DNA from: a virus
Direction: 5' to 3' (one strand)
Length of the DNA: 64,000 nucleotides
IMG/VR virus record: IMGVR_UViG_3300036791_001436
Span: 11,340-75,339 of that record
The first letter of the stretch is position 1, and every line of letters begins with the position of its first letter. Shown here piece after piece: positions 22,652 to 44,864 of the stretch. A program made the translations under genes and the position numbers. The notes under the pieces were generated by a model, which saw only the letters and a program-made list of their open reading frames with translations, was not told the origin of the DNA and made no database searches.

Positions 22652-23140
22652 CTAACCGAACTCCCAAGGGAAGACGACCCAATTATTCGGTATCTCGGTA
22701 CCAGGGAACGAGATCGGAGGGCGGTGCCCCTTGTAGAACATCACCGCAGTAGTGGCTTCAGGGAGTAGCCAGCGCGCCCAGGTCATAGTGCGCCCTGTAT
22801 CCCAGAGGTCGTCGACGATCAGCGAGTCCGGGTTGTTGTACTTGGCTCGGTATTCTGGCAGAGTCATCTGCGGGCGCGGGAGCAGCTCCCCTAGTCGACG
22901 ACCGTCCTTATACCCCATTACCCGAACGGATTCAAGGTTGGTCACGTTGAACCTATGGCTGAGCAGAAGGCCAGCGAACCACCCACCACGCCCTATAGCG
23001 AGCAATCGGTCAGGCTTGTACTTGTGCTCAAGCATAACCCTATGCAGGTGATTGACCGCTAGCTCCGCGGTCGCCCAACTGACGTATACCTTAGGTGCCG
23101 GCTCAGGAGCGACCGCGCGTGAGTTAAGCTCTGACGGCAT
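22652..23140 (-). CDS. Type I phosphoribosyltransferase (xanthine/guanine PRTase-like)
   Basis: AIGRGG, PRPP-binding motif LIVDDLWDTGRT, WVVFPWE C-terminus; GAAGGAG RBS before 23140. Confidence 0.85.
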   Translation of the reverse strand: MPSELNSRAVAPEPAPKVYVSWATAELAVNHLHRVMLEHKYKPDRLLAIGRGGWFAGLLLSHRFNVTNLESVRVMGYKDGRRLGELLPRPQMTLPEYRAKYNNPDSLIVDDLWDTGRTMTWARWLLPEATTAVMFYKGHRPPISFPGTEIPNNWVVFPWEFG

Positions 23141-23870
23141 CGAAGAACTCCTTCCGCAGAGGCGGGTTGGTGAGGAATCGTCCGCCACAGCGGTCGGTGA
23201 CAGTCTTGGAGTTTTGCTGTTGAGCGCCCCTGGCCTTCATGCACATGTGCGTTGCCTTGATGCACACAGCGATGTCCGTGGTGCCGAGGATGTATGCCAG
23301 CGCCTCGTAGATCTGTGCAGTCAGACGTTCCTGCACTTGAGGGCGCCGAGCGAAGAACTCTGCCACACGGGCGAACTTGGATAGGCCGAGGAGTTTGCGG
23401 TTGGGAATGTAGGCGATGTGCGCCACCCCGTCAATAGGCATCAGGTGATGCTCGCATAGACTCATGATCTGGATATCCTGCACCAGCACCATCTGGTCGT
23501 AGGCGCCGTGTGCTTCCTCTGGGGGAGGGGCGTTACTGCCGGTCCCTGTAGCGGCGGGGACTAGTACGGGCCGAAGCACACCATTCGGCACCACCGTGCA
23601 CTCAGGGAAGCGTTCGTAATCCAGGCCGGCACAGAACTCCTCAATGAACATCTTCGCATACCGGGCCGGTGTACGCATTAGGGAAGGATTGGTCAGGTCC
23701 AGCCCAAGATGGTTCAGGGCGATGCACAAGGACTCTTCGATGTAGGACTCTGCCAGTTTGAAGTCCGGGTCGTCCTTGAGAGGGGTCTCGAACCCCATCT
23801 TGACAAGGTGTTTGCGGACCTCCTCGCCTAGGGCGGGGTTGGTGATGTACTCGCTACCGAGTCGTGCCAT
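23124..23870 (-). CDS. folE: GTP cyclohydrolase I
   Basis: TP.R.AK, SLCEHHL.P, GLSK..R, RPQVQERLT, HMCM.ARG. Confidence 0.95.
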   Translation of the reverse strand: MARLGSEYITNPALGEEVRKHLVKMGFETPLKDDPDFKLAESYIEESLCIALNHLGLDLTNPSLMRTPARYAKMFIEEFCAGLDYERFPECTVVPNGVLRPVLVPAATGTGSNAPPPEEAHGAYDQMVLVQDIQIMSLCEHHLMPIDGVAHIAYIPNRKLLGLSKFARVAEFFARRPQVQERLTAQIYEALAYILGTTDIAVCIKATHMCMKARGAQQQNSKTVTDRCGGRFLTNPPLRKEFFDAVRA

Positions 23871-24153
23871 TCGTAGCCTCTGCCTGCTTGCGTTGCGCCA
23901 TTTGGTCCATCTTGCGGCGGCGCTTGATTTCCCTGCGGACGAACCATAGAGCTTTCTCTAGGTCTTCGTACGGGCAAGGGTGCTTCTCGTCACACCGCCA
24001 GAGGTATTGCATGGCGCTGCCGATGTTGAACGGCATGTGCTCGACTATCTCGATGCACTCTACGCCCGAGGGGTGATGGTTGTAATGAGGCGGGTGGTTG
24101 ATCATATCTACCACCGCAGGCTCGTGTTCACGTGGAACGACTGTCATTGACAT
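23854..24153 (-). CDS. DUF3310 protein (T7 gp1.7-like putative nucleotide kinase)
   Basis: D.INHP.HY, ECIEI, G.A..YLWR, EDL.KA.W. Confidence 0.8.
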   Translation of the reverse strand: MSMTVVPREHEPAVVDMINHPPHYNHHPSGVECIEIVEHMPFNIGSAMQYLWRCDEKHPCPYEDLEKALWFVRREIKRRRKMDQMAQRKQAEATNGTTR

Positions 24154-26594
24154 GTGCTATATCCGCATCCCTTACAGATCATGCATCCCGATTCAGAGAC
24201 GTACTTGTATTCGTAGCACTTCGGGCACTGCTGGACCATCGCTGCCAGTATGCGCGCCTCGACTGCACTGAAGTCCATGTCGATAAGCCGAGGCTTAGAA
24301 GGGCTCAGGGGCACCACCTTATGTTCCGGAGGCTCTGTAGCTGGCTGGTACAGAGGATCGAACGGAGGGGTCATCTGCTCCAGCTTCGAGCCGATGTAGG
24401 CGACTAGACTGGGATAGTACTGGCCTTCTGCCCATGCCCCTTCCAAGCTGCTTAGCTGCTTCAGTTCCTTTGCCAGGTCTTCAAGGGTGAACCCGTACCG
24501 GAGTACTAAGCTCATGAGTAGGGAGGTAGTGGTCGTCCACTCCATGCTGCGCTGGTCTTTGGAGTTGAAGAATATCTCCCAGGGAGTTCCATCCGGAAGA
24601 TAGTTGATCGTCAGGTAGAGGGCGGAGTTGAGGTTTGGCCAGCGGAGCTTGATTGTTCGGCCGACGAGCATTTCACTTCGCTCACGGCTGCCATTCCCGT
24701 TCGTGCCATTCTCTTGGTGCGGAGTCTCGTCAGGCGTCTCACCAGCCCGGGAGAGAATCGCTCCACGCACATCGCTAGGGCGATAAGTTGTACAGCCTTT
24801 GCAGCCGGCGTCATACGCGAGGGAGTAGACATTGCGGAACTCCTCAAACGTGGTCTCCTTGGGGAGGTTGATAGTCTTGCTGATGCTTGCGTCGATCCAC
24901 TTCTGGCAGACTTCCTGCATCCGAATGTGTTCGTGGATCGCCACATCCTCTGCCGTGTTCATATGGCGAGGGAGCTCGTCGTCGGGGTGCAGAGAATGCC
25001 AAAGCTTGGCAGCGTAGGAGTACTCGGTATAGGGTTTGTAGCTACCATCACCCTGCAGGACGTTCCTCTGCATCTCGTGGGCGAACGTTGGCTCGAGCCC
25101 GCCGTCGATGTTGCCGTAGGCGATTGAGGTAGTGCCCGTTGGAGCGACGGTTAGGAGCACCCCATTCCGCAGACCGCGCTCCCGGATCCTATCTTGTAGG
25201 GTGTGGGGCAACATGGTGCCAGCGAACCCTTCGAAGAACTGCTCCGCAGAGAACTTCGGGAATGGGTCCCGCTCGATGGAGAGTTCCACCGACGTCTCGT
25301 ATGCAGTGATGCAGAGGGTCTGGATGATCTGCTCTGCCAGCTGGAAGCTGCGCACACTTCCGTAGCGGGTCCCCATCTGGGCGAATGCGTCGCCGAGACC
25401 AGCAACTCCGAGTCCCAAGCGGCGCTTGGCGATCTCTTCTTCACGTTGCTGTGGGAGTGGGTAGTTTGTGACGTCGATCACGTTGTCGAGGAATCTGGTG
25501 CCGATCCGTGCGACGGTCTTCAGGAGCTCGAAGTCGAAGTAGGCGTCGTCGGTGAATGGCTTCTGCACCATCCTGGATAGGTTCACCGCACCTAGGTTGC
25601 ACGTACCGTGTGGCGGTAGCGGTTGCTCGCCGCAAGGGTTCGTACAGTGGATGTACTCGCAGTACTGCAGGTTGTTGAGGTCGTTGATGCGATCAATGAA
25701 GATGACACCGGGCTCTGCGTATTCATAGGTTGACTGAAGAATTTGATCCCAGAGATCTCGGGCTCGGTGGACTGCGTACACGTACTGCTTGAGTCCTGTC
25801 TCGTCTTCGTCCCAGTCCAGGTCGATCAACTTGCGAGGGCGCTCGAATGCAGGGGGAACGTCGAAATGTAGGTACCAGTCTTCGTCCTCTTCGATTGCTC
25901 CCATGAAGGCGTCGGAGATCAGGACGGACACGTTGAAGTTGGTCAGCCGACCCTTCTCATGCTTGGCGGTAACGAACTTCAGGAGGTCAGGGTGGGTGTC
26001 GCTGATGGTCGCCATCATGGCGCCGCGACGGTCTCCAGCGGACTTGACAGTTGAACATGCAGAATTCCAGGTATCCATAAAAGGAAGTGGACCTGATGCA
26101 ACTGACCCCGTCCGTCTGAGAATGGCACCGGAAGGACGTAGCGTGGAGAAGTCAGTGCCGATGCCGCCGCCTTGCTGCCCAGTGAGCATGATATGCTTGA
26201 GCGCATCTGCAATGAACTCCATGCTGTCTTCAATGCGGTCGTTGACGTAGCAGTTCATCAAGGTGACTACCTTGGCAGTGCCGGCGCCAGCCAGGATACG
26301 GCCGCCAGGCATCCAGAGGTAGTTCTTCATCGCCACTTCGGCGAGGTCTCGGTTCTTGGAACCGATGTCACTCAGGTCCTTGACGTAGATCCCGGACACT
26401 ACTCGCGAGCACAGATCGTCCCAGGTCTCGATGCCGTAAGCGTACTTGCTCTTGAATATGTCGGCGACCAGGGGGCTGGAGTAGATGTCGAAGGAGTCGT
26501 GCTCCTTCGGGCGCTGGGAGAGGGTGTTGCGTTCTGCTTCGAACCACTCTGCCGAATTGTATTCAGGGGCTGGGGCTGGCTTACGGAGGGCCAT
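24144..26594 (-). CDS. nrdJ: Class II (adenosylcobalamin) ribonucleotide reductase with TSCPD domain and Zn ribbon
   Basis: PGGRIL, NCYV, GGGIG.DFS.LRP, TNPCGEQPL, CNLG, APTGT, ISKTIN, KG.T.YR, terminal CPKC..GC..C..CGYSTC; no beta subunit seen. Confidence 0.93.
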   Translation of the reverse strand: MALRKPAPAPEYNSAEWFEAERNTLSQRPKEHDSFDIYSSPLVADIFKSKYAYGIETWDDLCSRVVSGIYVKDLSDIGSKNRDLAEVAMKNYLWMPGGRILAGAGTAKVVTLMNCYVNDRIEDSMEFIADALKHIMLTGQQGGGIGTDFSTLRPSGAILRRTGSVASGPLPFMDTWNSACSTVKSAGDRRGAMMATISDTHPDLLKFVTAKHEKGRLTNFNVSVLISDAFMGAIEEDEDWYLHFDVPPAFERPRKLIDLDWDEDETGLKQYVYAVHRARDLWDQILQSTYEYAEPGVIFIDRINDLNNLQYCEYIHCTNPCGEQPLPPHGTCNLGAVNLSRMVQKPFTDDAYFDFELLKTVARIGTRFLDNVIDVTNYPLPQQREEEIAKRRLGLGVAGLGDAFAQMGTRYGSVRSFQLAEQIIQTLCITAYETSVELSIERDPFPKFSAEQFFEGFAGTMLPHTLQDRIRERGLRNGVLLTVAPTGTTSIAYGNIDGGLEPTFAHEMQRNVLQGDGSYKPYTEYSYAAKLWHSLHPDDELPRHMNTAEDVAIHEHIRMQEVCQKWIDASISKTINLPKETTFEEFRNVYSLAYDAGCKGCTTYRPSDVRGAILSRAGETPDETPHQENGTNGNGSRERSEMLVGRTIKLRWPNLNSALYLTINYLPDGTPWEIFFNSKDQRSMEWTTTTSLLMSLVLRYGFTLEDLAKELKQLSSLEGAWAEGQYYPSLVAYIGSKLEQMTPPFDPLYQPATEPPEHKVVPLSPSKPRLIDMDFSAVEARILAAMVQQCPKCYEYKYVSESGCMICKGCGYSTCQ

Positions 26595-26602
26595 CGGTAC
26601 CT

Positions 26603-26941
26603 CTACTGTGCGACGCGTTCAATCTCTGTGAAGGTATCCGTCTGCGGACGGATCGGCGGTGCAGTGCGGATCAGAGCGCGAAGGGTTACCACCTCGCATA
26701 GAGTATGGCCCTTCTTGCGGTGGCCACCCATCACCACGCGATCCATGAGCGTTGCCGCTCGATCTGCGAGTCGTGGGCTGATCGAGAACTGCCCAAGGTT
26801 CTTGATGGCGGTTATCAGCACCCCTACGGTGAGTGCCCCGCTCCCGCGGAAGTATGCGTGCGACAGGATCCAGAATTGGGTAGTGGCCTGTTCGTTGGAT
26901 TCTGGGTCATAGGCGGGCTTCGGTTGTAGTGACTTTATCAT
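26603..26941 (-). CDS. Hypothetical protein
   Basis: ORF in operon orientation upstream of nrdJ. Confidence 0.5.
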   Translation of the reverse strand: MIKSLQPKPAYDPESNEQATTQFWILSHAYFRGSGALTVGVLITAIKNLGQFSISPRLADRAATLMDRVVMGGHRKKGHTLCEVVTLRALIRTAPPIRPQTDTFTEIERVAQ

Positions 26942-27075
26942 TGTTGGTCTTCCCCTATCCTCAACGAGGATGAGCCCCCAGCCAGCGGTACCTGACTGAG
27001 GGCTCCCCTTGTGTCACCTCGCGGATGTGTGCCGGCTTACAGGCACCGCAAGGCTTAGCAAGTCTGCGTTACCCG

Positions 27076-27582
27076 CTATGCCTTCGGCTGCGGGAGATCG
27101 GCCGGATGCGTTGGATGCGAGTCGGCGTCGATCACCACCCAGCGGAAGCCGACATAGGGGATGTAGACGAGGATCATGACGTCGCCCTGCACCCCTCCGA
27201 GCGGCGGCCACACGGTGCCAGGCGGCAGCGCGATGGGATGCTCCGGCGTTCCCGTGACAACCGGCGGCAGCGTGTTGTCCACGTGCGGCGGTGCTTCACC
27301 TCCCCAGATCCCCGGGGGAGGCGGAGGGAGAGTGTTGTCGGGCCCGACAGGCGGCGGCCAGAGACCCACAGCCGGCGGCAGTCCCTGATCCGGATGGGGA
27401 GGCGGAGCACCACCCCAGATCCCCGGAGGCGCTCCACCTGGGGCGATCGGGTGGCTCGGTGCCCCTGGACCCGGCCAGACGCTCGGCGGAGAACCGCCAG
27501 GTGCAATGGGGTGGGTAGGCGTTCCGCCTCCGCCACCGCTGTGTGCCAACGGTGTGATCAGGGCGAGGAAGGGTTCAGACAT
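27076..27582 (-). CDS. Pro/Gly-rich repeat protein (HPIAPGG / PPGIWGG / DNTLPP repeats)
   Basis: GGAG RBS, own promoter, C/G-ending codons. Confidence 0.7.
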   Translation of the reverse strand: MSEPFLALITPLAHSGGGGGTPTHPIAPGGSPPSVWPGPGAPSHPIAPGGAPPGIWGGAPPPHPDQGLPPAVGLWPPPVGPDNTLPPPPPGIWGGEAPPHVDNTLPPVVTGTPEHPIALPPGTVWPPLGGVQGDVMILVYIPYVGFRWVVIDADSHPTHPADLPQPKA

Positions 27583-27677
27583 AACTTCTACTCTCTCCTA
27601 AGTAGTGGCGTCTGCCACGGTTGAACGCACTTGTCTCGCCCCCGCCGTACTCTTCGGTCTCACTATATGCTATAAGT

Positions 27678-27706
27678 ATTATATAGCATACTAGCGAAGG
27701 AATCAA
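27678..27706 (-). promoter_or_regulatory. sigma70-like promoter
   Basis: GCCTC-TTGATT-N17-TATAAT on minus strand. Confidence 0.75.
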
Positions 27707-27757
27707 GAGGCAAAATGATGGGCGCCCCAATTTACTTTTGGCTCAGTCTTAGCCCTC

Positions 27758-30169
27758 CTATGCCGCCTCCTGTAAGGGTTCCCACTCCTGCATTGCGTCC
27801 GAGTCCCAACGTTCACCGAACTTCGCATCGGCGACGAACGGCACTCGTGTAAGGCCCCAATCTCTTGGTACTCTGGCCATCACCCCGAGCACGTACGTTA
27901 GCGATTCGTCCAAGGCCTGACGGTCCTGACGGATCTTGAAGTAGATGCTGTCGTGCACTAGGTTGCAGATCCTAGCATTCCACCGCTCGCGAAGCACGGG
28001 GGCCACCTCGCAGGCGGCCACGGTGTTGATGTCGGACGCCGTGCTTGAGTGGGGGTAGTTCGCGGCCTCGTTCTCAAGGTCGTGAAGGTTCTCGTAGCTG
28101 ACCACACCCCACCTCTTTTTGCGTCCGAAGTTGGTGATCATCGTCCATCCTCGTGCAGGGGCTTTGCGCGAGTCCATGATGAACTCCTTTGCCCGAGGAA
28201 ACTGGGCAAACCACCCATCGATGTACTCTTGCGCCACTTCGGTCGTGGTGTCGAATTCCTCTGCCAAGGTCCATGCAGTGCGCCCATATACGATACCAAA
28301 CGTGACCGCTTTCGCTCTCATGTACTGCTCGTGGTTGTAGTTCTCCCCAAAGTATCGTCGTGACACAACCTTGTGGATGGAGGTCTTACCCTCCACGTAG
28401 ATCTCGCATAGGGAAGGGTCGCCGCTCATAACAGCGAGGCATCGGAGCTCGGCTTGGTTCAGGTCAGCCTCAACTAACCACTCATCGGGGTCCGCAATGA
28501 ACTGCCGACGGATGAAGGGACCGCGCTCCATGTTCTGTAGGTTGGGGTCCTTAGAGGCTAGACGTCCATTCACAGTCCCATGGATCAGGTAGCTCGTATG
28601 AACCTTCCCGTCCTTGTATCTCCACCCGAGCGCGGGCTTAACGTAAGTGCCGTGGCGTTTGGCGAGCTTCCTTACGCGCTGGATGGGGCGCACAATGGGA
28701 TGATTGTGCTTGCGCTGGATCTGGATGATCGCCTTGGCGTCTGTGGAAGTGCCGATGGGGCCTAGCTTCATCCGGTTGTATAGGAGATCCCCCAGCTGTG
28801 CTGGGGAGTTGACGTTGATCGGGGCCCCGCAGTACTTGATAGCGTATGGCTGGATCTTGGCAACTTCCGCTTCGATCTCATCCTTGCACAGCTTGTCGTT
28901 CGTTGCGACTACTTCTGGGTCTAGGAGGATACCTTCCAGTTCCACCTCTGCCAGCATTTCGGAGGCTGGGATCAGTACACGGCGGTACAGCTTGGAGAGG
29001 TGTGGGTCCTTAGTGATCCGGGGCTGCTGCGCAAAGAATATCTGGTGCGTCTTGGCAATGTCATATGCTTGGTACTTGTAGAGAGCCTCTCTAGGTACGA
29101 GAGCATACGAGCGGTCGGCTTTCTTGTACCGCTTCAGGTATTGGTCTAGTTCCGCCTTGTGATGCGGAGCACCGAGTTCCCGTAGGGCAATTTGATCCAA
29201 GTCGTGCAGACCGCGCGTCTCGTTGAGCGCATAGGACTGTAGCATAGTGTCTTCATCGACACGAGCTCGTATGCCTTCTGCCCGGAAAAACTTAACGTCA
29301 AACTTGCCGTTCTGCCAGATCCATCTGGGTCCACGGGACTCCATGAGCCTCCGGGTAAGAGATTCGGCCCGCCAGATAAGGCGGTTCGGGATGATGTAGA
29401 CATGCTCCCCATTCCACGTTACACCATGTGATATCATCCAGTCGCTGAGGAAGTCGAACCCAGAGGTCTCGATGTCCCCAGTCAGGTACGGTTGCTTGAT
29501 GGCCTTATGTACGAACGCGGCATACTCTGGGATAGTTTTGATCACTCTGTAGGTAGGTGGCTCCCACACATCTGGTGGGCGGTCTTGTGCTAAGAGAACT
29601 GCCTTCTTCAGATCCCGCTGCCACTCCGAGTACCCTCCCCCACCTTGCTTCATCAGGAACGCAGGGTGCACCGCCAGTACTACTCCGTGCTTGGCGAGTG
29701 AGGTGGGGATGACTTGCCCACGCACACGGGTAATCTTGATGTTGGTAATGCCGGTTAGGCTTACGGCTGCATGCTGCCCTAGTGCCAGAATGACTTTGCG
29801 AGGGTGCGCGCGGATCTGGTTGATGAGCCGCTCGTGGCAAATGCTCACAGCCCGTGGCATCCGATCGTCGTCCTTCACCTTCGGGAAGCACTGGATCGCA
29901 TTGAGGATGAGCGGTTTGATGTGGGGAGGCAGACCTACCTTTGCCAGGATGGTCTCTAGCATCTCTCCTGAGGGCCCAACAAACGGGACCCCACGTGACA
30001 GCTCTTGCGCCCCTGGGCTCTCTCCGACTATCACGAATGGAGAATCAGCGGGGCCCCTTCCCCCTACTTTGAGCCCTCCGAAGGGACACCCATTGCAGCC
30101 TACTGGCCGCTGGTCTAGAGGGACCCTAGGAATGAGGCGTAGGGCGGACGCTAGAGGATGGACAGCCAC
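27758..30169 (-). CDS. polA: Family A DNA polymerase with N-terminal family-4 uracil-DNA-glycosylase-like domain and 3'-5' exonuclease
   Basis: UDG: CxxC, GESPG, PFVGPSG, HPA. Exo: DIET, QNGKFD, YQAYD. Pol motifs: A DLNQAELR, B RAKAVTFGIVYG, C VHDSI. Confidence 0.93.
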   Translation of the reverse strand: MAVHPLASALRLIPRVPLDQRPVGCNGCPFGGLKVGGRGPADSPFVIVGESPGAQELSRGVPFVGPSGEMLETILAKVGLPPHIKPLILNAIQCFPKVKDDDRMPRAVSICHERLINQIRAHPRKVILALGQHAAVSLTGITNIKITRVRGQVIPTSLAKHGVVLAVHPAFLMKQGGGGYSEWQRDLKKAVLLAQDRPPDVWEPPTYRVIKTIPEYAAFVHKAIKQPYLTGDIETSGFDFLSDWMISHGVTWNGEHVYIIPNRLIWRAESLTRRLMESRGPRWIWQNGKFDVKFFRAEGIRARVDEDTMLQSYALNETRGLHDLDQIALRELGAPHHKAELDQYLKRYKKADRSYALVPREALYKYQAYDIAKTHQIFFAQQPRITKDPHLSKLYRRVLIPASEMLAEVELEGILLDPEVVATNDKLCKDEIEAEVAKIQPYAIKYCGAPINVNSPAQLGDLLYNRMKLGPIGTSTDAKAIIQIQRKHNHPIVRPIQRVRKLAKRHGTYVKPALGWRYKDGKVHTSYLIHGTVNGRLASKDPNLQNMERGPFIRRQFIADPDEWLVEADLNQAELRCLAVMSGDPSLCEIYVEGKTSIHKVVSRRYFGENYNHEQYMRAKAVTFGIVYGRTAWTLAEEFDTTTEVAQEYIDGWFAQFPRAKEFIMDSRKAPARGWTMITNFGRKKRWGVVSYENLHDLENEAANYPHSSTASDINTVAACEVAPVLRERWNARICNLVHDSIYFKIRQDRQALDESLTYVLGVMARVPRDWGLTRVPFVADAKFGERWDSDAMQEWEPLQEAA

Positions 30170-30984
30170 TGCCGCACCGCCCTGATGTTGTCAAGTGCGT
30201 GTGGGTGGTCGTCCAGAGTTCCTTTCTCGAACCAGTTCTTCGGGCGAGGCTCTTGCTTGTGGCTCGGGCTTAGTTGTTGGGGATGGCGTATAGGGACTGC
30301 CGAGTCAATTCCTAACACCCCCGTCTGTCGAGCCGCCTGTAGATCATCCCATATGTTGTCACTGAACCCCAGCAGGTGGATGTTGATGTCCGGCCGTATG
30401 AGATGGATGTACTGCACCGCCGCTGTTCGCATTGGCCCTAGTAGGCGAGGTACTCCTGCCCAGGTGATCAGCGGGAAGGCCTTGGTGTCCAGTAGGAAAG
30501 CGTCTGCGATGTTGGTGAACTCCTCCCAAGAGGGGCCATGCGTCACCAGCATGAATCCTTCGCTGAGGTCCACGATGTCACTTTGTACCCACTCACTGTA
30601 GGCGATCGTGCTACGGAGAGCGGTAATGTCGGCGCTGCCCATCTCATCTGGAAGTACTGGCACTAGACGGAGGCGCGAGAGCCGATGGGCGTGGATGGGT
30701 TCGGCTGTGGAGATGGCCTTGAGCGCGGCCTCCATCACGTCTATCGGGATGGGTATCCCCAACTCCACGATGCTGTTGTCCATGATCACGACAACGTCCC
30801 CGCCTGCAGTGGTGAGGATGTATTCTCTGAACCTAGCGGTGAACCGTTCTGGGAACTCCAGTACGTGGTGCGCCAGGAGGAGATGGTAGTCCCCGAATAC
30901 AAAAGGGGACATCTCCTCCAGGATCTGGATGGGAGCAACAGGTGCGAACTTCGGGTGGTGGGTGGGGTGGTTGTTGATTGTCAT
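30151..30984 (-). CDS. Divergent TGT/DpdA-like TIM-barrel protein (putative deazaguanine transglycosylase)
   Basis: Likely start overlaps the queE stop (ATGA). Motifs IMDNS, LPD, VTHG, IHLLG and GIDS parallel TGT-superfamily motifs. Between queE and polA. Confidence 0.6.
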   Translation of the reverse strand: MTINNHPTHHPKFAPVAPIQILEEMSPFVFGDYHLLLAHHVLEFPERFTARFREYILTTAGGDVVVIMDNSIVELGIPIPIDVMEAALKAISTAEPIHAHRLSRLRLVPVLPDEMGSADITALRSTIAYSEWVQSDIVDLSEGFMLVTHGPSWEEFTNIADAFLLDTKAFPLITWAGVPRLLGPMRTAAVQYIHLIRPDINIHLLGFSDNIWDDLQAARQTGVLGIDSAVPIRHPQQLSPSHKQEPRPKNWFEKGTLDDHPHALDNIRAVRQWLSIL

Positions 30985-31832
30985 CGTGCGCGCTCGTTTC
31001 CCCAGATGAGTACGTGAAGTTGTGGCAGGTACTTCCAGTGTGCCAGTCGCCAGTCGTTCAGGAAGTCCTGCTCCAGAGAGTCCTTGAAGTCGCGGAGTAG
31101 CAGTTTGGGGATATCTTCGTCCCCCTCTGCTGCCTGAAATCCTCTGGCGGGAATTGGTGGCCACGGATTGCCGACAGAGAGGAATCGCTCCTCTCTTGGG
31201 AAGACGTAGTAGTCCAGGAGTGCATCCACTGTGATGGCGAACTCTAGGTCCAGTGCCGAGAAGACGATGACTTTGATGCTGGTCATGGTGCCACTGCAAC
31301 GCATCAGGAAGTCGGAGAACTTATCTGGCTCGAACTTCTCTCCCATGCCAGGACCCTTTGGTGAGATGGTCACCTGGTTGCACAAGGCCACCCAGTCTTG
31401 CCAGATGGTCCCTTGGGTCTCTAGGGCGACCTTGAATCCTCGTTGTTGTAGGGAGCGGACTAGATCACCCCCTTCTTCCCAGATGGCTGGGTTGCCTCCG
31501 CTCAGAGTCACCCACTGAGCTAGCCGACCGCATTTTTGGGCGACCTCTTCCGCTATTTCCTCCGGGTACATCCACGTTGCGTGCGCGTGGATAACTTGAG
31601 GGATCACTGCGAACAGGGAGTCGCACATCCTGCAGCGGTAGTCGCAACCTCCTAGTCTGACGAACATCGTTTTGGTGCCAATCATGACACCCTCGCCTTG
31701 GATGGTAGGGCCGAAGACTTCCATCACGGGGAGCTTGCCTCGCTTCCCTTCGTCCTGATCGGGGAGCGGTGCTGCCTTGAGCTGGGCTGCCTCAGTCGGG
31801 TCGGATCTCGTAGCTTGCGGAATTTCCGTCAT
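30981..31832 (-). CDS. queE: 7-carboxy-7-deazaguanine synthase (radical SAM)
   Basis: EVFGPTIQGEG, CDYRCRMCD, LSGGNP, ETQG, ISPK, PQLH. Confidence 0.93.
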   Translation of the reverse strand: MTEIPQATRSDPTEAAQLKAAPLPDQDEGKRGKLPVMEVFGPTIQGEGVMIGTKTMFVRLGGCDYRCRMCDSLFAVIPQVIHAHATWMYPEEIAEEVAQKCGRLAQWVTLSGGNPAIWEEGGDLVRSLQQRGFKVALETQGTIWQDWVALCNQVTISPKGPGMGEKFEPDKFSDFLMRCSGTMTSIKVIVFSALDLEFAITVDALLDYYVFPREERFLSVGNPWPPIPARGFQAAEGDEDIPKLLLRDFKDSLEQDFLNDWRLAHWKYLPQLHVLIWGNERAR

Positions 31833-32250
31833 GTTCCGACACTGTCACTTTCTCTAGTTGTACCCGCCCGTCTGATTGGGAGGCGATGAAGGAGTAGGCG
31901 TGTTGGAAGATATGGGCAGCGAAGGCCTCGATCCCTACTTGTGGGAGCACTATGAGGTCTGCCGCTTTGGCGATCTGGAGTTCCCTGAATGTGCTGATCA
32001 GAGGATCGTCGGCAGCCACTAGCAGCTTATGGTCGAACTGCTCCTGGAGCCACATCTTCAGTTCCTTGAGCCCGCCGAAGTCCTGCACCCAGCCATTCTC
32101 GTCAAGGGCAAACGCCGAGAACTCGAAGTGGATCTTCAACGCATACCCATGCAGGTAGTGGCAGTGGGAATCCGATCGCCATTGCCTGAAGCAGCAGCTT
32201 AGACCTTGTTCGTGCCCATAGGTCTTGCTGCTAGTGAACCTATGTTCCAT
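31792..32250 (-). CDS. queD: 6-carboxy-5,6,7,8-tetrahydropterin synthase
   Basis: C..LHGY, DFGGLK, FDH, V.EH..NSA. Confidence 0.9.
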   Translation of the reverse strand: MEHRFTSSKTYGHEQGLSCCFRQWRSDSHCHYLHGYALKIHFEFSAFALDENGWVQDFGGLKELKMWLQEQFDHKLLVAADDPLISTFRELQIAKAADLIVLPQVGIEAFAAHIFQHAYSFIASQSDGRVQLEKVTVSEHDGNSASYEIRPD

Positions 32251-32255
32251 GGCTG

Positions 32256-33050
32256 CTACTCCGCCAGGTAGACGGTTGGGTCGTGGACGATCGCATCGTG
32301 GAACGCTTCCCTACGTGCGATACAGGTTGGGCAGACACCGCAGTGCCGGCTCTCACCTGCATAGCAGCTCCAGGTGTCTGCGAAGTCGACGTCCAGGGAG
32401 TCACCGAGTTGCACGACTTCGGACTTCACCATGTGCACCAAGGGAACGCGAAGGCGCACCTTCCCGTAGGTGCCGATCTGGATGGCTGCCGCTTGCGCAC
32501 CGAGGAACTCCAGAGTGCAGTCTGGGTATGCGTCTCTGGCTGCATCGTCGGCGTGCATCCCAGCGTAGAGAATGGCGTTGGCCTGTGCTAGGCTCTTCTC
32601 TGCTGCCATCACCCAGGACTGTGCCCTCGCTGCCATGATGCTGAGCATTGTCCCGTTGCGATAGCTGACGTAGGTTGGGGAGATGCCTTCGGGAAGCTCC
32701 CCGTACGACATCTGGGGGATGGGTTCGTTCACTTCCTTGTCCACCAACATTCCCGTGAAGGACCCTTGGATGTTGACAACGATGTGCTCGGCCTCGAACT
32801 TCTTGGCTTGCCTGCGGGCGTACTCGATCTCCTTCTTGTGCCGTTGCCCATAATCGAAGGTCAGGCACTCGATCTCAGCACTGGGGAATTGGTCACGAGC
32901 GAACGCCAGGACGGTGCTGGAGTCGACTCCTCCCGACAACATGACGAAGCACTTGGTGACCACGAGCGGGGGCTTGGGTCTCGGATCCCTAAATGTCGAA
33001 GTCAGGGTCTGGGGTAGGTCTGACTCTGTGGAGGTAGGGTGATCGACCAT
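32256..33050 (-). CDS. queC: 7-cyano-7-deazaguanine synthase
   Basis: SGGVDS, FDYGQRH, TYV..RN, YPDC, TWSCY, CGVCPTC; no GAT domain fused. Confidence 0.95.
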   Translation of the reverse strand: MVDHPTSTESDLPQTLTSTFRDPRPKPPLVVTKCFVMLSGGVDSSTVLAFARDQFPSAEIECLTFDYGQRHKKEIEYARRQAKKFEAEHIVVNIQGSFTGMLVDKEVNEPIPQMSYGELPEGISPTYVSYRNGTMLSIMAARAQSWVMAAEKSLAQANAILYAGMHADDAARDAYPDCTLEFLGAQAAAIQIGTYGKVRLRVPLVHMVKSEVVQLGDSLDVDFADTWSCYAGESRHCGVCPTCIARREAFHDAIVHDPTVYLAE

Positions 33051-33297
33051 GTTGGCCTCTAGCTTGTGGGTCGGAGGGTGGAGACTGGGCAAGACGTCGG
33101 AGCTCGGAGATGGGGATGCGATAGTTGCGCCCCATGTACTCGCCCTTGATCTGCCCAGTCTTGATCCAGTTCAGTACCGTGTGGTAGTGTACGTGGAGTA
33201 ACGGTGCAGCGCGACGAGGCGATATCCATCCTCGGAGGTTGAGGATCTCCGCCGCCGTGAGACCGGCGACTTCTTCTTCAATGTCGTTGGGGGACAT
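32989..33297 (-). CDS. HTH_17/excisionase-like DNA-binding protein
   Basis: AA.LL.VH..TV.NWIK.GQI......YRIP. Confidence 0.75.
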   Translation of the reverse strand: MSPNDIEEEVAGLTAAEILNLRGWISPRRAAPLLHVHYHTVLNWIKTGQIKGEYMGRNYRIPISELRRLAQSPPSDPQARGQHGRSPYLHRVRPTPDPDFDI

Positions 33298-38157: not shown

Positions 38158-38495
38158 GGGAGTTCGATCCCGTACTTCACTTTGAACCCCTCAACGAACC
38201 TGTTCAGTTCGTCGGCGATCTGCCCCATGCGGATCTCATCTGCCGGGGTGGGTTCTTCACTACCAGGGTCGAGCATTGTCATTATGGAACCGAGGAGGTG
38301 TTGGGCTCCAGCGAAGAATGCCATGCGCATTTCCTCCAGTTGGATCTCCGGGGCGTCAGGAGGAATTGCCATCTCTCGCATGCCCAGCCACCCTGCTTCG
38401 ATCAGCAGGCCGTCGGCAACCGCTTTCCTCGTGACCTTGGCGACAATTGCCTGTAGGCGTTCTCTGTCTTGAGCTTCGCGCTCTTCGTTGGTCAT
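38154..38495 (-). CDS. Hypothetical phage protein
   Basis: Coupled ORF; Q..E.R.AFFAGA motif. Confidence 0.6.
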   Translation of the reverse strand: MTNEEREAQDRERLQAIVAKVTRKAVADGLLIEAGWLGMREMAIPPDAPEIQLEEMRMAFFAGAQHLLGSIMTMLDPGSEEPTPADEIRMGQIADELNRFVEGFKVKYGIELP

Positions 38496-39208
38496 GTCAG
38501 GTTCTCCGTTGCTCGGTGGTCGGGGATGTCAGGGAAGTATTTCATGATCGCATTCCAGCACAGGTTTGCGATATGACGGTGCTCCTTCTGGGAACCTTCT
38601 TTTGTGCGCACACGGGTGTAGTGGTACCAGTCTCGTATGCGCCCGTTGAAGTACATCTTGGTTGGGGTGTTCCCTTCTGGGAGCACTACTCGGGCCTGCT
38701 CCTTAGCAATGCCTCTAGCGAGCGCCTGGTTGTAGACAGCGATGGCTCGGAGCCAGATTTCCCCTTGGGCGGCTAGCCACCACTCTTGGTCGCCGAGTTG
38801 TTGAGGATCACGAAGGTCAGGTTCTAAGGAACCTTGGCGGTTGATGGGGTCTTGGTATCGTAGTTCCCTGAGGATAGGACCTCTGATATCGGTCCCAACC
38901 TCAGCATAGCGCTGGGAGAATTCCTGGGGCTTTAAGGAGGAGTGTCGAAGGATCTGTCGCCCGATGTCACGAGTGGCGAGGATCTCGCATGTGGCATCCA
39001 CCATCTCCAGTGGGGACCACTCCTCTCTCCTGATCAGACCGCGGATCAGTTTTGCTCCAGTCCTGTGGTTGGTCTGGTTGGCTTCGTTGCTCACGCGGGC
39101 ATAGAATGCCAGCAGCTCCTGAGGGGTCTTGACCCCGTACACCTCCTGCAGTTCTTGGGTCGGCATGGAGATGGAGGTCACTCTTGCGTCATAACCGACT
39201 ATGGTCAT
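38492..39208 (-). CDS. thyX: Flavin-dependent thymidylate synthase
   Basis: ARVSN, WSPLE, QILRH...QEFSQRY, KEQAR.VLP, QKEH. Confidence 0.92.
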   Translation of the reverse strand: MTIVGYDARVTSISMPTQELQEVYGVKTPQELLAFYARVSNEANQTNHRTGAKLIRGLIRREEWSPLEMVDATCEILATRDIGRQILRHSSLKPQEFSQRYAEVGTDIRGPILRELRYQDPINRQGSLEPDLRDPQQLGDQEWWLAAQGEIWLRAIAVYNQALARGIAKEQARVVLPEGNTPTKMYFNGRIRDWYHYTRVRTKEGSQKEHRHIANLCWNAIMKYFPDIPDHRATENLT

Positions 39209-40557: not shown

Positions 40558-41589
40558 TTACCCGATGTCTATTGGGTCGCGGAAGCCTTTGAAGACTGGC
40601 GTCCGCGGCGCGGTGTAGCCCCCACCGTATCCTTGGTGCTTAAATTTGACCGTCTTCCCGATCAGCTGCTCCCGGAGGAGCCATAGGGATTCCTTTTCTG
40701 CCATGCTGAGACCGTCGAACACCCCGATGCTGAAGTGGATCTGGAGGTTCTGGGTTTCGTTGCCTAGGGGTGGGTAGTCCATTACTACCTGCAGAGCCCC
40801 TAGGCAGTCTAGGGCTACCAGGTTCTCCTGGTGCGCGGAGCGGCTTGTGAGCCCGAGTTCGTTCTCCGTCTGAGGGTTGTTGTTCTGGTAGCGGGGCTCA
40901 TACCCTACGACCACTGCCTCCGCATCCTCGAACCGCTTCAGCTTCGTGAGCAGACCCTGTTTGGCGGTTGATCGACCGAATTTGTACCCTCCGATGCTGC
41001 GCCGCACGATCGCCCCTTCCCACCCCTGCTCGAGGAATTTGCGTTCCAGTTCGTAGATGTCGCCCAGTGTCGCTGCGGTCTCGTTCGGGACTACCACGAT
41101 CTGCGCGCAGTACTCGCCGTTGGTGCCTCGCACCTTGATGGCCTTGTTGGCCACGAGGTCGAAAGAGCGTTCATGGGAGGACAGTTCGTTGATTAGCATC
41201 TGAGGGCGCCACCTGCGGATCGAGAAGTCCTCCGGCCACATGATGTCGAAGAGGTACACGGTGAACTCCGGGCTCCCCTCTTCGCTTCGGATCCCGGACA
41301 TCGATGTTCGGAACACCGTTGGGTCGTAGGTGTGTCCAGAGATCACCTCGCCATCGCAGTTCATCAGTTCGAAGTGGAAGTCCTGCGCGAACTGTTGCAG
41401 GTACTTGTTAGCGTGAGGTTTCCACGAACGGCTCCTGGCGATGCCGTCACGGTCGAAGACCACCCGCATCCCGTCGATCTTCGGCTGCACGTAGAGGAAC
41501 TTGTCTTCCGCTAGGTGCGCGTGTACGATCTGCTCGTCGAACTTCTGCGCCGCGAGCATCGGCCTGATCTGTGTGTTCTCAGTGGTCAT
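40558..41589 (-). CDS. ATP-dependent DNA ligase
   Basis: PMLA, PKIDGMR (KxDG), DGEV, FDI, EGAIVR, KLKRF.DAEA, PR.PVF.GFRD. Confidence 0.92.
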   Translation of the reverse strand: MTTENTQIRPMLAAQKFDEQIVHAHLAEDKFLYVQPKIDGMRVVFDRDGIARSRSWKPHANKYLQQFAQDFHFELMNCDGEVISGHTYDPTVFRTSMSGIRSEEGSPEFTVYLFDIMWPEDFSIRRWRPQMLINELSSHERSFDLVANKAIKVRGTNGEYCAQIVVVPNETAATLGDIYELERKFLEQGWEGAIVRRSIGGYKFGRSTAKQGLLTKLKRFEDAEAVVVGYEPRYQNNNPQTENELGLTSRSAHQENLVALDCLGALQVVMDYPPLGNETQNLQIHFSIGVFDGLSMAEKESLWLLREQLIGKTVKFKHQGYGGGYTAPRTPVFKGFRDPIDIG

Positions 41590-41593
41590 GGCC

Positions 41594-41938
41594 CTACCTC
41601 CTCCGGTGCCTGACAGGGTCGATCACGTTCAGCAGATCGTACGCATCGTCGTCGAGGTCGAATCGATCCGTGTTCCCATATGCCCATCGGCAATACTTGG
41701 GGTCTGCTCGGATGAGATCCTCTACGAGGACTCCTGCGTACTTCCCGAACTTGATAGTGTCGCCGAGACTGTACACTGTTCGTATGGAGGTGAAGCTACG
41801 GATCATCACCTCGGCGAAGTGGTTAGGGGTGATCCCTCGTTCCGCCGCTGTGTTGTAGAAGTCCTGAGCCACCTCGAATGGCACATCGATGACGATGCGC
41901 TGCACCTCTGGCTGGTTGGTTAGTGTCAGGGATCCCAT
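41594..41938 (-). CDS. Small protein with FGKY.G (exonuclease-X C-terminal-like) motif
   Basis: IKFGKYAG...DLI..DP.Y..W. Confidence 0.6.
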   Translation of the reverse strand: MGSLTLTNQPEVQRIVIDVPFEVAQDFYNTAAERGITPNHFAEVMIRSFTSIRTVYSLGDTIKFGKYAGVLVEDLIRADPKYCRWAYGNTDRFDLDDDAYDLLNVIDPVRHRRR

Positions 41939-41972
41939 GGTTGGCCTACCGCCTCCTTTTCGTCGTCATTAT

Positions 41973-42001
41973 ATTATATAGCACCCAACGAGTGACCTCA
42001 A
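41973..42001 (-). promoter_or_regulatory. sigma70-like promoter
   Basis: GACTC-TTGAGG-N17-TATAAT. Confidence 0.7.
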
Positions 42002-42672
42002 GAGTCCAAATTGTGGTTGCCATTGTTTCTGTTGGCTCGGGCCTTGTCGATCATCGCCCGGACCTCTGGTGACATCTTCCGCTCATGCCCCTTAGGGGTG
42101 TATCCCGATTCTACCAGGCTGTACTTTGGTGGCCGGTCTTCTAGGATGTTGATGATCTCCTCCGCCCACATCTCCGACAGCATCTGGTTCTCTGCCGTTG
42201 CCATCTTCCCGTCCACCGTCAAGCTGACGGTTTGGAGTACGGCACCAAACTCCTCCAGCCGTTGTCGCGATCGGACTAGGGGGAAGAAGCTCACCCGCTT
42301 TCCTTGGGCAATTGGTGCTAGTGTAGGGACCGAACAACAGATGGCAGAGGTCATCTTGCCCTCGCCTTGAAACCCCCTCAGTAGTTGCTGCAAGTGGTCG
42401 TCCGTCCAGTAAGCCTCTGTGTCGGCCATGTTGCCTGACACCACTACGATCCCGTCTAGGGTTGGAGTGGAATGGGCCGTCACCGCCTCAAGAGGGCTGA
42501 CTTGATAGACTGTCCTCTGGATAGTGTTGGGACGTAGTGTCAGCTCATCCCGGATTAGGGTTTCTTGCGACACGACTTCGAAGGAGTGCCCCTTTTTCTG
42601 GAGCACCCCCAACAGGGTCCACAGCTCATGGCCATTGTACCTCTTCGCACATACAACTAGCACTTTGGACAT
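41998..42672 (-). CDS. DJ-1/PfpI family protein
   Basis: KVLVV....Y...E, nucleophile elbow SAICCS, GKR.S, VDGK.ATA. Confidence 0.8.
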   Translation of the reverse strand: MSKVLVVCAKRYNGHELWTLLGVLQKKGHSFEVVSQETLIRDELTLRPNTIQRTVYQVSPLEAVTAHSTPTLDGIVVVSGNMADTEAYWTDDHLQQLLRGFQGEGKMTSAICCSVPTLAPIAQGKRVSFFPLVRSRQRLEEFGAVLQTVSLTVDGKMATAENQMLSEMWAEEIINILEDRPPKYSLVESGYTPKGHERKMSPEVRAMIDKARANRNNGNHNLDS

Positions 42673-42692
42673 GGCTGTGGCTCCTGTAGGGG

Positions 42693-43094
42693 TTAGACCG
42701 TAGTGTCGGTTGCTTGGGCGCTGCGCGCTTCGACTTCTTCGGGGGTGATCGGCACTGCGGCCACATCACGCTCGGCGCCTAGGTTCCCTTCTGTGGTTGC
42801 CATATCCGGCTTCCAGTTGGGGATCACGTTCCCCTCGTCGTCCATATCGAGACGCATCAGGTGCAGATCGCCGCCGGCCGCGAAGAGTTTGATCGGCAGA
42901 CTGTGGCTGTTGATGTACGCGGTGAGTACGGAGCGAAGATAGGCTGGATTCTTTCCGAGCCCGGTGATGTCGATCTTGGCGACCCTGTAGTTGGTCTCCA
43001 TGAACCCCTTGATGATCGGGTAGGAAACCCTACCACGCCGACCAAGACGTTCAGTGGGGACATCTGCGGGATCGACTTCGACGAACTTGACCAT
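42693..43094 (-). CDS. Hypothetical protein
   Basis: AAGGA RBS before MVKF; own promoter. Confidence 0.6.
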   Translation of the reverse strand: MVKFVEVDPADVPTERLGRRGRVSYPIIKGFMETNYRVAKIDITGLGKNPAYLRSVLTAYINSHSLPIKLFAAGGDLHLMRLDMDDEGNVIPNWKPDMATTEGNLGAERDVAAVPITPEEVEARSAQATDTTV

Positions 43095-43144
43095 TATGCT
43101 ATTCCTTGACCTCTTGCCCTCAGGCATATTGATATAATACATAA

Positions 43145-43173
43145 ATCATATATGTATCAGATGTAGAAGTCAA
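43145..43173 (-). promoter_or_regulatory. sigma70-like promoter
   Basis: TTGACT-N17-TATGAT in an AT-rich island. Confidence 0.7.
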
Positions 43174-43202
43174 CAACTAATATATGTTCATCATAAAAAT
43201 AC

Positions 43203-43772
43203 CTACGTCGGAGGTTTACCTTCCCAGTCACTACGCTTATTGCGCCCCTGCTCTTCGCTCGTAGCCCAACGGACTTGACGTGTCTTGCCGTCAGCTTGGT
43301 ATGGTTGATAGTTGCCACGAGGATCGACTCTGTCTAGGGTATGATCCTTACTAGGTGCTGGCCCCATGAAGGCTATGAAGTTCGCCCAACCTTGTGGGTT
43401 ATCCCTGTGCCATTCAGGACATACGATAACTCCCTTGGCTCCATAGTACGGATACCCTACGTGGTCTGGATGGTAGCATCTACGCATCATCATCCACCAA
43501 ATACCCCGCTCACGGGGGAAGGGGTTGGCGTCCGCGTAGGTGATGCAGCCGCAGCTGCGCTTTGGCCATTTTGGGCGGAGGAGGTAGAATGCTGGCACGG
43601 ACTCACGCTTACCACAGTCGCACTCAACCCTCCACCGGGAGTTCTGTGCTCCCTTGACGCTCACCCGCTGGATCACCGTTAGGTATCCAAACCTGGCTCC
43701 GGGGTACACTCCAACTTTACGCGCGCGCTCCGTACGCTTGTCAGCCTTGTGCTTGTGAGTGGCTTGTGGCAT
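43203..43772 (-). CDS. Free-standing HNH homing endonuclease
   Basis: G.RFG.LTV, CDCG, SCGC, M..RC, YG.KG..VC.EW, TLDR.D..GNY, RWAT..EQ.RN. Confidence 0.85.
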   Translation of the reverse strand: MPQATHKHKADKRTERARKVGVYPGARFGYLTVIQRVSVKGAQNSRWRVECDCGKRESVPAFYLLRPKWPKRSCGCITYADANPFPRERGIWWMMMRRCYHPDHVGYPYYGAKGVIVCPEWHRDNPQGWANFIAFMGPAPSKDHTLDRVDPRGNYQPYQADGKTRQVRWATSEEQGRNKRSDWEGKPPT

Positions 43773-43823
43773 CAGTCCTCAGCCTTGTGCTTGTGAGTGG
43801 CTTGTGGCATCAGTCCTCAGCCT
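43741..43823. repeat. 38-bp perfect tandem duplication (2 copies plus 7 nt)
   Basis: tcagccttgtgcttgtgagtggcttgtggcatcagtcc at 43741-43778 and 43779-43816. Confidence 0.9.
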
Positions 43824-44133
43824 CATATCGATGGGTGCGTTCCACCTCTGCGACCTTCCATACGCGCACGTTGTTGCCTTCCTTCCTGCACGTAACCCAC
43901 CCGGAGCCTCCTAATAGCCATGCAGTGGCTGATACCCTGCTCGTTGAGACGCGGCGGATGAGTACCGAGTCGCCAATGTCAGCTGCTATCAGCGCCTTGA
44001 TACAAGCCGAGATGCCTCTGGATCGGTGGCGTCCTTCGGGTATCGGGATGCCCTTCTCGATCACAGGGTCCAGGTTTGTGATCGTGTCGGGATCGTGTTC
44101 GTCGTCGGGTGCTGGTTTGGGTGAGGGTGGCAT
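43810..44133 (-). CDS. Small putative DNA-binding protein (IEKGIPIP type)
   Basis: IEKGIPIP...IGDS...VRVW pattern; GAAGGAG RBS. Confidence 0.6.
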   Translation of the reverse strand: MPPSPKPAPDDEHDPDTITNLDPVIEKGIPIPEGRHRSRGISACIKALIAADIGDSVLIRRVSTSRVSATAWLLGGSGWVTCRKEGNNVRVWKVAEVERTHRYEAED

Positions 44134-44158
44134 CACGTCTCCTTCCGCATCTATGTAT

Positions 44159-44187
44159 ATTATATAGCACTCCTTATAGTCAAGCAA
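44159..44187 (-). promoter_or_regulatory. sigma70-like promoter
   Basis: GACTC-TTGCTT-N17-TATAAT. Confidence 0.7.
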
Positions 44188-44217
44188 GAGTCCAAATTTA
44201 GGGGCTAGGGGCTTGGG

Positions 44218-44784: not shown

Positions 44785-44824
44785 GTTGTTCTTGCTCTGT
44801 AGGTACTGTGGGGAAGCTTGGTGG

Positions 44825-44864
44825 AAGAAAACCCCAAGTCCGGGTCGATCAGTCGGACTTGGGG
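44825..44864 (-). terminator. Intrinsic terminator
   Basis: CCCCAAGTCCG/CGGACTTGGGG stem with a U-tract on the minus strand. Confidence 0.65.

Follow-up and report, generated by a model that had tools for sequence, protein, structure and literature searches.

The window, a 64,000-nt stretch spanning bases 11340-75339 of the 75,339-bp IMG/VR virus record IMGVR_UViG_3300036791_001436 (rated complete by CheckV), carries on its minus strand a block of genes for the synthesis of 7-cyano-7-deazaguanine (preQ0). Within this block a gene resembling tRNA-guanine transglycosylase (TGT) adjoins a DNA polymerase gene, and a gene for a small phosphoribosyltransferase (PRTase) adjoins folE. We favour, with moderate confidence, the reading that the block encodes a DNA-modification system of the DpdA3 type, which would place preQ0 in phage DNA (dPreQ0), together with a PRTase that scavenges guanine and feeds FolE. 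Such a system would be of a known kind, DpdA3-type deazaguanine DNA; what is new is the divergent transglycosylase clade, preQ0 as the predicted base and the coupling to PolA.

The DpdA3-like transglycosylase and the predicted base

The protein encoded between queE and polA has no match in Pfam (even at an E-value of 10), PHROGs, NCBIfam or the PDB sequences, and its identity therefore rests on fold and profile comparison. An AlphaFold (AF2) model made from 35 homologues (predicted local distance difference test, pLDDT, 92.5) gave a TGT as its best Foldseek match (E = 5e-5), and the top 50 VIA matches were all Z. mobilis TGT (Z 15.6-16.1, root-mean-square deviation ~3.6, ~233 of 277 residues). 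The DpdA3 of phage phiST (CGPG_00065), described by Cui et al. in 2023, is likewise a Pfam-invisible TGT homologue, located between the 7-carboxy-7-deazaguanine (CDG) genes and the polymerase, and the phages with complete guanine replacement have transglycosylases of the DpdA3 subfamily, phiST, immuto_2-6A and CP220 being reported as 100% replaced (PMC10516641). The family of the phiST gene was built and compared with that of the window protein by profile-profile alignment (hhalign), and the two aligned end to end over 234 columns (95.4%, E = 1.9e-8). Both profiles match identical ORFs in 11 other viral records. The TGT-like label of the original prediction is thus borne out by a TGT barrel fold (VIA Z 16.1) and by distant DpdA3 homology; by these sequence and model comparisons, the protein is a member of a divergent DpdA3-like clade with ~18% identity to phiST DpdA3. 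Single-sequence searches do not link this clade to DpdA3.

The clade comprises 355 homologues, all unnamed and without Pfam domains; within GenBank phages they are restricted to the Brevundimonas phages MaInes and StAshley, in which the gene is annotated as hypothetical. Residues D69 (motif MDNS) and D227 (GIDS) are invariant in the 35 sequences of the window family, and hhalign pairs the two motifs with those around D51 and D205, which are invariant in the phiST family; the match of these residues to the catalytic Asp residues of TGT is one of motif order only. No Cys is invariant in either family alignment, so that there is no sign of the Zn site of TGT.

The TGT family PF01702 was silent on the whole genome, and the protein has no PHROG match (phrog_887, DpdA1). 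The former result is no evidence against a phage DpdA, since the DpdA1 genes known in 9g (KJ419279) and Seurat (KM236243) likewise escape a six-frame PF01702 search, whereas phrog_887 finds both (E = 1e-98 to 1e-100); for this reason it is the PHROG result that carries weight against a canonical TGT or DpdA1. Comparison of the window family with the Vibrio nt-1 DpdA2 by hhalign gave no signal, which is uninformative with a single-sequence template. The DpdA1-type Queuovirinae (9g, CAjan/Seurat, NP1 and iggy) also combine a preQ0 pathway with a DNA transglycosylase, but DpdA1 (phrog_887) is another subfamily, with a reported replacement of 0.1-30%, and searches of 9g and Seurat gave no stand-alone PRTase.

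In each of the 60 related IMG/VR loci the DpdA3-like gene immediately precedes PolA, and it comes after the que genes wherever the flank is long enough. The gene calls of the window (an ORF listing with Pfam, PHROG and NCBIfam scans) confirmed the minus-strand block in the gene order described by the original prediction. In ascending coordinates the genes, followed by one gene outside the cluster, are:

22652-23140 (-): PRTase of the xanthine-guanine phosphoribosyltransferase (XGPRT, Gpt) type, 162 aa; end gene of the block, 17-nt overlap with the folE stop
23124-23870 (-): FolE, GTP cyclohydrolase I, 248 aa; PF01227 E = 1e-56, NF006824 239 bits (cut-off 202)
23854-24153 (-): DUF3310 protein, 99 aa; PF11753 30.4 bits (cut-off 24), PHROG 11324 E = 1e-25
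24144-26594 (-): NrdJ, class II (B12-dependent) ribonucleotide reductase (RNR), 816 aa; TIGR02504 527.5 bits (cut-off 399.95), PF02867 and TSCPD
26603-26941 (-): putative small ORF, 112 aa; no Pfam or PHROG match
27076-27582 (-): putative small ORF, 168 aa, Pro/Gly-rich and of low complexity; no family match
27758-30169 (-): DNA polymerase A with uracil-DNA glycosylase-like (UDG-like) and 3'-5' exonuclease domains at the N-terminus (UDG-exo-PolA), 803 aa; PF00476 E = 8e-68, PF03167 E = 8e-21, PF01612 E = 6e-9
30151-30984 (-): divergent DpdA3-like transglycosylase, 277 aa, by fold and profile comparison
30981-31832 (-): QueE, 7-carboxy-7-deazaguanine synthase, B. subtilis type; TIGR03365 214 bits (cut-off 206), PHROG 2076
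31792-32250 (-): QueD, 6-carboxytetrahydropterin synthase; PF01242 E = 1e-19, PHROG 2389 E = 3e-42
32256-33092 (-): QueC, 7-cyano-7-deazaguanine synthase, without a Gat domain; PF06508 E = 2e-48, TIGR00364 146.8 bits (under the cut-off of 150.3)
53660-54100 (+): possible MazG-like protein, outside the cluster; PF12643 17.2 bits (cut-off 27), E = 0.006, PHROG 229 E = 3e-5

The junctions in the block are overlaps of 17, 17, 10, 19, 4 and 41 nt and gaps of 5-8 nt. The start codon of the DpdA3-like gene, ATG 30984, shares the sequence ATGA with the stop codon of queE, and at its other end the gene runs 19 nt into the start of polA. The start of queC is TTG 33092 or ATG 33050, and an alternative PRTase start at GTG 23188 is probably unused. 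Promoter and terminator scans of the block gave nothing above the shuffled expectation.

The nearest cultured relatives, MaInes and StAshley (protein identities of 34-54% to the window), have the same order of helicase, exonuclease, AAA_24, DUF669, helix-turn-helix protein, queC, queD, queE, DpdA3-like gene, PolA, RNR, kinase, folE and PRTase; a megablast search of the block against GenBank phages gave no match.

The route from GTP to free preQ0 is catalysed by FolE, QueD, QueE and QueC, a chemistry established for these families. No QueF, canonical TGT/ArcS or formyltransferase was found in a search of the whole 75-kb genome, the sole QueF signal being a 12-bit match located within folE, and preQ0 would thus be the last base that the phage can make. 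The original prediction had seen no queF, arcS or GAT-QueC fusion and had taken dPreQ0 DNA to be the simplest product of a preQ0-making cluster; the whole-genome searches agree with the former and support the latter. The phiST-type DpdA3 phages share with the window the FolE/QueD/QueE core, an XGPRT-type PRTase in the genome and a small Pfam-invisible TGT-fold protein between pathway genes and polymerase, whereas the window has QueC, has PolA instead of the phiST polymerase, and lacks DpdL, QueF and DpdN. The predicted base is preQ0 because of this presence of QueC and absence of DpdL, QueF and DpdN. None of the DpdA3 phages tested by Cui et al. had a preQ0 end base (PMC10516641), and the predicted combination of DpdA3 with preQ0 would be new.

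Two annotation gaps touch on this gene family. Both DpdA3 families weakly match one gene beside Pol I in the Bacillus BSTP phages; in BSTP5 (MW354669, 33944-34732) this gene is annotated as 'putative integrase/recombinase' and stands between Gat-QueC, QueD, QueE and FolE on its upstream side and, directly downstream, DNA polymerase I. It is probably a misannotated DpdA3-like gene. In phiST (NC_020842), a 3.8-kb stretch adjoining the DpdA3 cluster (41525-45346) has no annotated gene, and the locus tag CGPG_00063 is missing; it is here that Cui et al. placed the polymerase genes (PMC10516641).

The phosphoribosyltransferase and its tie to FolE

The window PRTase has the type I PRTase fold, the motif for binding phosphoribosyl pyrophosphate (PRPP) and the pyrophosphate (PPi) loop. 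It matches PHROG 8995 (E = 4e-14) and NF006613 (E = 6e-15), with scores below the family cut-offs (23.2 against 26.3 bits for Pfam, 55.2 against 138 bits for NF006613), and its best PDB sequence matches are 1vdm (P. horikoshii PRTase) and E. coli XGPRT (E = 5e-9). With its AF2 model (pLDDT 89.8), the top Foldseek match was E. coli XGPRT 4jit/1a97 (E = 3e-11, TM 0.71-0.80). The fold and size are those of the XGPRT of E. coli and Yersinia (PDB 1A95-1A98, 1NUL, 4JIT and 5XTK) and of the small archaeal PRTases (1VDM and 4Z1O), which share with it the PPi loop, the PRPP motif with a third Asp, a Lys and a Trp-x-x-x-Pro-Trp-acid segment. It differs from XGPRT in sequence (24-28% identity) and in belonging to a clade that is encoded beside or fused to FolE.

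An exhaustive HMMER search gave 1109 relatives, the nearest with ~40% identity. Across 38 of them the PPi loop RGG, DDLWDTG including the third Asp, a Lys and WxxFPWE are kept, and these motifs align with the corresponding segments of E. coli XGPRT, where the aligned residues include the base-stacking Trp, the O6-contacting Lys and the N7-contacting Asp, the third of the PRPP motif. Cellular genomes seldom have the clade signature DDL-W-DTG, with 8 loci, from metagenome-assembled genomes, among 185,579 species genomes; these 8 loci include no cluster like those of TubE/ToyH (tubercidin/toyocamycin) and no Streptomyces. On this evidence, the PRTase is classed as a small XGPRT-type enzyme of a separate, mostly viral clade.

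The genomic context of the PRTase was analysed in two sets, one of 80 viral contigs with unrelated backbones, for genes within 10 kb, and one of 86 loci, by unbiased clustering of same-strand neighbours within 3.5 kb. In the first set folE is found in 50 contigs, mostly directly adjacent, and queD, queE and queC in 29, 28 and 14. In the second the neighbours are QueE (51 loci), MazG/PRA-PH-like NTP pyrophosphatase (17), QueD (16) and PolB (16), with FolE merging into the PRTase cluster itself via fusion proteins. A full PRTase-FolE fusion of 429 aa (PF00156 and PF01227) is encoded at 8932-10218 of contig L113 (IMGVR_UViG_3300007734_000624, 35.7 kb, rated complete). A second architecture is found in Pseudomonas phage NP1, a DpdA1-type Queuovirinae phage with Gat-QueC, whose 297-aa 'GTP cyclohydrolase' gp36 (NC_031058, 30895-31788) begins with a trimmed PRTase-like domain (97.3%, E = 2e-11). 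This domain retains the RGG loop, IDDLIDSGST and WIVFPWE, and is shorter by ~30 residues in the part that links the RGG loop to the PRPP motif. In the window's own FolE, hhalign with the PRTase profile detected no vestigial PRTase domain. Taken together, gene neighbourhood and fusion indicate that the PRTase is linked to the pathway, specifically to FolE, and is not a chance neighbour.

Two further observations concern these loci. IMGVR_UViG_3300007734_000624 additionally has a DpdA1-type gene (phrog_887, E = 1e-15), and in 14 viral loci (for example L080, 9036-9995) the PRTase is preceded, at a distance of ~1 kb, by a gene resembling GDP-mannose-4,6-dehydratase/epimerase, a GTP/GDP-linked neighbour.

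Single-sequence tblastn with the window PRTase gave matches in 16 of 50,697 GenBank phage records, of which 11 are DpdA3-type (the Brevundimonas pair, the Cellulophaga phiST group and the Flavobacterium immuto phages). A search with the PRTase profile adds CPT_0182 of Campylobacter CP220, which is located two genes away from a radical-SAM gene, so that PRTase relatives occur in all three tested types of complete-replacement phage (phiST, immuto_2-6A and CP220). The searchable literature holds no mention of a phosphoribosyltransferase in the context of deazaguanine DNA modification.

Among whole records with the window's DpdA3-like clade, the profile finds the PRTase in 7 of 31, and in 3 of the 10 that are at least 90% complete. 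It was not found by profile in the complete DpdA3-like isolates Bacillus BSTP5 and Chryseobacterium MA9V-3, the same search being positive for phiST, MaInes and CP220, nor was it found in nt-1, 9g, Seurat, MS1, Qyrzula, R29Z and RHEph06. The distribution indicates a dispensable, accessory gene in this clade. Conversely, 50 PRTase-bearing viral records contain DpdA3 in 17 cases and DpdA1 in 3 (phrog_887, positive controls matched), most of the others being 5-25% fragments; among the records so covered there was no clear case of a complete que pathway and PRTase without any DpdA. The original prediction had suggested co-occurrence of the PRTase and DUF3310 with que genes as a check. For the PRTase it is seen in the folE neighbourhoods, yet in only 3 of the 10 complete clade genomes; for DUF3310 it is scarce, homologues being present in only 2 of the 60 related loci.

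Proposed mechanism and alternatives

In the mechanism that we propose, FolE, QueD, QueE and QueC would turn GTP into free preQ0, and the DpdA3-like enzyme, translationally coupled to queE and PolA, would swap guanine in phage DNA for preQ0; the likely place of the swap is the replication fork or the stretch just behind it. The level of modification is probably high or complete, judging from the relationship to DpdA3. Each exchange would free one guanine, which the PRTase may convert with PRPP into GMP; this would clear a competing product of the exchange, and two kinase steps from GMP to GTP would lead back into FolE in a closed loop. NrdJ, ThyX and the DUF3310 kinase would serve the general dNTP supply, unspecialised for deazapurine nucleotides. 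That the PRTase salvages guanine released by base exchange had been named as an alternative in the original prediction, and it fits the data best. It would explain why the partner of the PRTase is FolE rather than QueC, why a single PRTase family occurs across phages with different end bases, why the PRTase is enriched in complete-replacement systems (guanine release being stoichiometric with genome G content) and why it is dispensable, since host Gpt/Hpt could substitute.

Several points weigh against this proposal. The action of DpdA3 on DNA has never been demonstrated, and attempts in E. coli failed (Cui et al., PMC10516641). The proteins of both DpdA3 families are acidic, with median pI values of 5.1 and 5.3 and net charges of about -8 to -12; this is unexpected for a DNA-binding enzyme, though a weak objection. 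The other complete base replacements in phages of which we know arise at the nucleotide level, and completion after replication would be unusual. The PRTase and FolE catalyse non-consecutive steps with two kinase steps between them, which leaves the PRTase-FolE fusion unexplained by channelling. Finally, guanine as the PRTase substrate is a claim from motif conservation, and 7-deazaguanines, which share their guanine face with guanine, may also be substrates.

The alternative of most weight, although we consider it unlikely, is complete replacement of G at the level of the nucleotide pool, whereby the polymerase uses a modified dNTP. Either the PRTase would make a 7-deazaguanine ribonucleotide, or DpdA3 would swap the base on dGMP/dGTP while the PRTase removes guanine. 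It is to the two forms taken together that this estimate applies, each being less probable by itself.

The first form is a pre-replicative route in which the PRTase ribosylates preQ0, kinases and NrdJ carry the product on to dPreQ0TP, PolA incorporates it and dGTP is depleted; we hold it to be improbable. A precedent exists in TubE, a PRPP-dependent, CDG-specific 7-deazapurine PRTase (PMC6112128). Like the window, the TubE/ToyH clusters encode a purine-type PRTase with FolE/QueD/QueE homologues but, compared by description only, their products are secondary metabolites and an enzyme for insertion into nucleic acids is lacking. For Campylobacter phages a route through modified dGTP was at one time put forward (PMC6884629), and a 7-amido-7-deazaguanine (ADG) nucleoside has been seen in infected cells (PMC10516641). 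The occurrence of the PRTase in all three phage types with experimentally found 100% replacement, and of MazG/PRA-PH-like pyrophosphatases near it in 17 of the 86 loci, also agrees with this route.

However, if the PRTase were the obligatory entry enzyme, its absence from 7 of 10 complete same-cluster genomes, and from BSTP5 and MA9V-3, would not be expected. A DpdA3-like gene is always there. By adjacency and fusion the partner of the PRTase is the GTP-consuming FolE, rather than QueC, the RNR or a kinase. One and the same PRTase family is found with 7-deazaguanine (DG), ADG, 7-(formylamino)methyl-7-deazaguanine (fdPreQ1) and preQ0 as end bases, which fits one common substrate, and it retains the third Asp of DDLWDTG, the residue that contacts purine N7 in 6-oxopurine PRTases.

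NrdJ and DUF3310 are not conserved partners. The PHROG families of the DUF3310 domain are labelled 'nucleotide kinase', a predicted function only; its resemblance to T7 gp1.7, a dTMP/dGMP kinase, is a statement of the original prediction. MaInes and StAshley, unlike the window, have a class I RNR and another dNMP kinase, of 221 aa, at the positions of NrdJ and DUF3310. The MazG-like gene at 53660, which the original prediction had proposed as the depleter of dGTP, is a sub-threshold call without an NCBIfam match, 20 kb off the cluster and on the other strand; it is the sole candidate in the genome for a dNTPase that removes a canonical dNTP, clear MazG/PRA-PH-like genes being found in the clusters of relatives. 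The dZ (2-aminoadenine) pathway of S-2L-like phages (PurZ, DatZ and MazZ) completely replaces one purine through a dedicated synthetase that acts on nucleotides, together with a dNTPase by which the canonical dNTP is removed. The window, by contrast, encodes a transglycosylase, shows no synthetase of this kind and has a MazG call that stays below threshold. Of the original prediction on this point, high-level G replacement stays plausible because the transglycosylase is DpdA3-like, and the dedicated chain of PRTase, DUF3310, NrdJ and PolA is not supported as the means to it.

The second form, to which we give slightly less credence, is a swap by DpdA3 of guanine for preQ0 on dGMP, dGDP or dGTP, followed by incorporation by PolA and recycling of guanine by the PRTase. 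It would account for complete replacement, and it is in keeping with an enzyme that is small (~260-280 aa), acidic and without an invariant Cys, which we read as absence of the Zn subdomain of TGT. The constant adjacency to the DNA polymerase gene in the 60 related loci, and PolB within 3.5 kb in 16 PRTase loci, point in the same direction, as does the want of any demonstrated DpdA3 activity on DNA (PMC10516641). In other lineages DpdA3 adjoins PolB rather than PolA, which makes a conserved interface between DpdA3 and the polymerase less likely. Polymerase adjacency, however, fits a fork-coupled exchange on DNA equally well, polynucleotides are the substrates of all characterised TGT/DpdA enzymes, and no data here speak directly for a nucleotide substrate.

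Outside the pool-level readings, the PRTase might perform ordinary purine salvage from degraded host nucleic acids, as part of a general nucleotide module (NrdJ, ThyX and kinase) with no tie to deazaguanine. Its place at the end of a run of nucleotide-metabolism genes (nrdJ and DUF3310) and its accessory character in this clade would suit such a role, and some viral PRTase relatives have no que gene within 10 kb, for example in the complete records L065 (198 kb) and L088 (a provirus). The proximity of folE in 50 of 80 contigs of unrelated backbone, of same-strand QueE within 3.5 kb in 51 of 86 loci, the two independent fusion architectures and the DpdA3 type of 11 of the 16 GenBank records all argue against it, and we judge it rather improbable, about on a par with the pre-replicative route.

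A regulatory or sensing partner of FolE, which would bind PRPP, guanine or GMP and tune GTP entry with little or no catalysis, is suggested by the shortened domain on NP1 FolE and by the fusion of non-consecutive enzymes, which implies control since channelling is impossible, but it is very improbable for the window, whose stand-alone PRTase is full length with all catalytic motifs and a confident XGPRT model.

Neighbouring genes and significance

The two small ORFs at 26603-26941 and 27076-27582 have no family match and no homologue in the 60 related loci. The latter, between polA and nrdJ in a locally GC-richer stretch, encodes largely Pro and Gly in repeated HPIAPGG-like units; an Arg-rich ORF lies opposite, and the ORF may be non-coding. 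Elsewhere in the genome are ThyX, a ligase, an SNF2 helicase and a primase-like protein. ThyX (PF02511, E = 1e-31; 38492-39208, minus strand) and a DJ-1/PfpI-family protein (41998-42672, minus strand) lie in the same leftward arm, so that, beside the que cluster, the phage carries a wide range of nucleotide-metabolism genes. The phage sequence is present in three soil metagenomes from 2020 (Logan contigs).

In a study of Brevundimonas viromes, all contigs of the winter 'ssDNA virome' remaining after dsDNase treatment aligned to the dsDNA phages MaInes and StAshley, whose GC content is 50%, against 59-66% in other Brevundimonas phages (PMC10070969). Nuclease-resistant, heavily modified DNA is a possible cause of the former result, and high abundance explains it equally well.

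To our knowledge, DpdA3 systems are the only way to replace every genomic guanine with a 7-deazaguanine, and the mechanism has never been shown biochemically. The present analysis adds to them a large unannotated sister clade of 355 proteins, with two cultured Brevundimonas phages, and an XGPRT-type enzyme tied to FolE by adjacency and fusion, which gives the pathway a clear helper step, unremarked in the searchable literature. If the proposed mechanism is true, guanine scavenging would account both for an exchange that is driven all the way and for the recycling of the purine. If the PRTase instead accepts deazapurines, the post-replicative model of the field would be wrong, and either outcome would bear on the engineering of restriction-resistant DNA.

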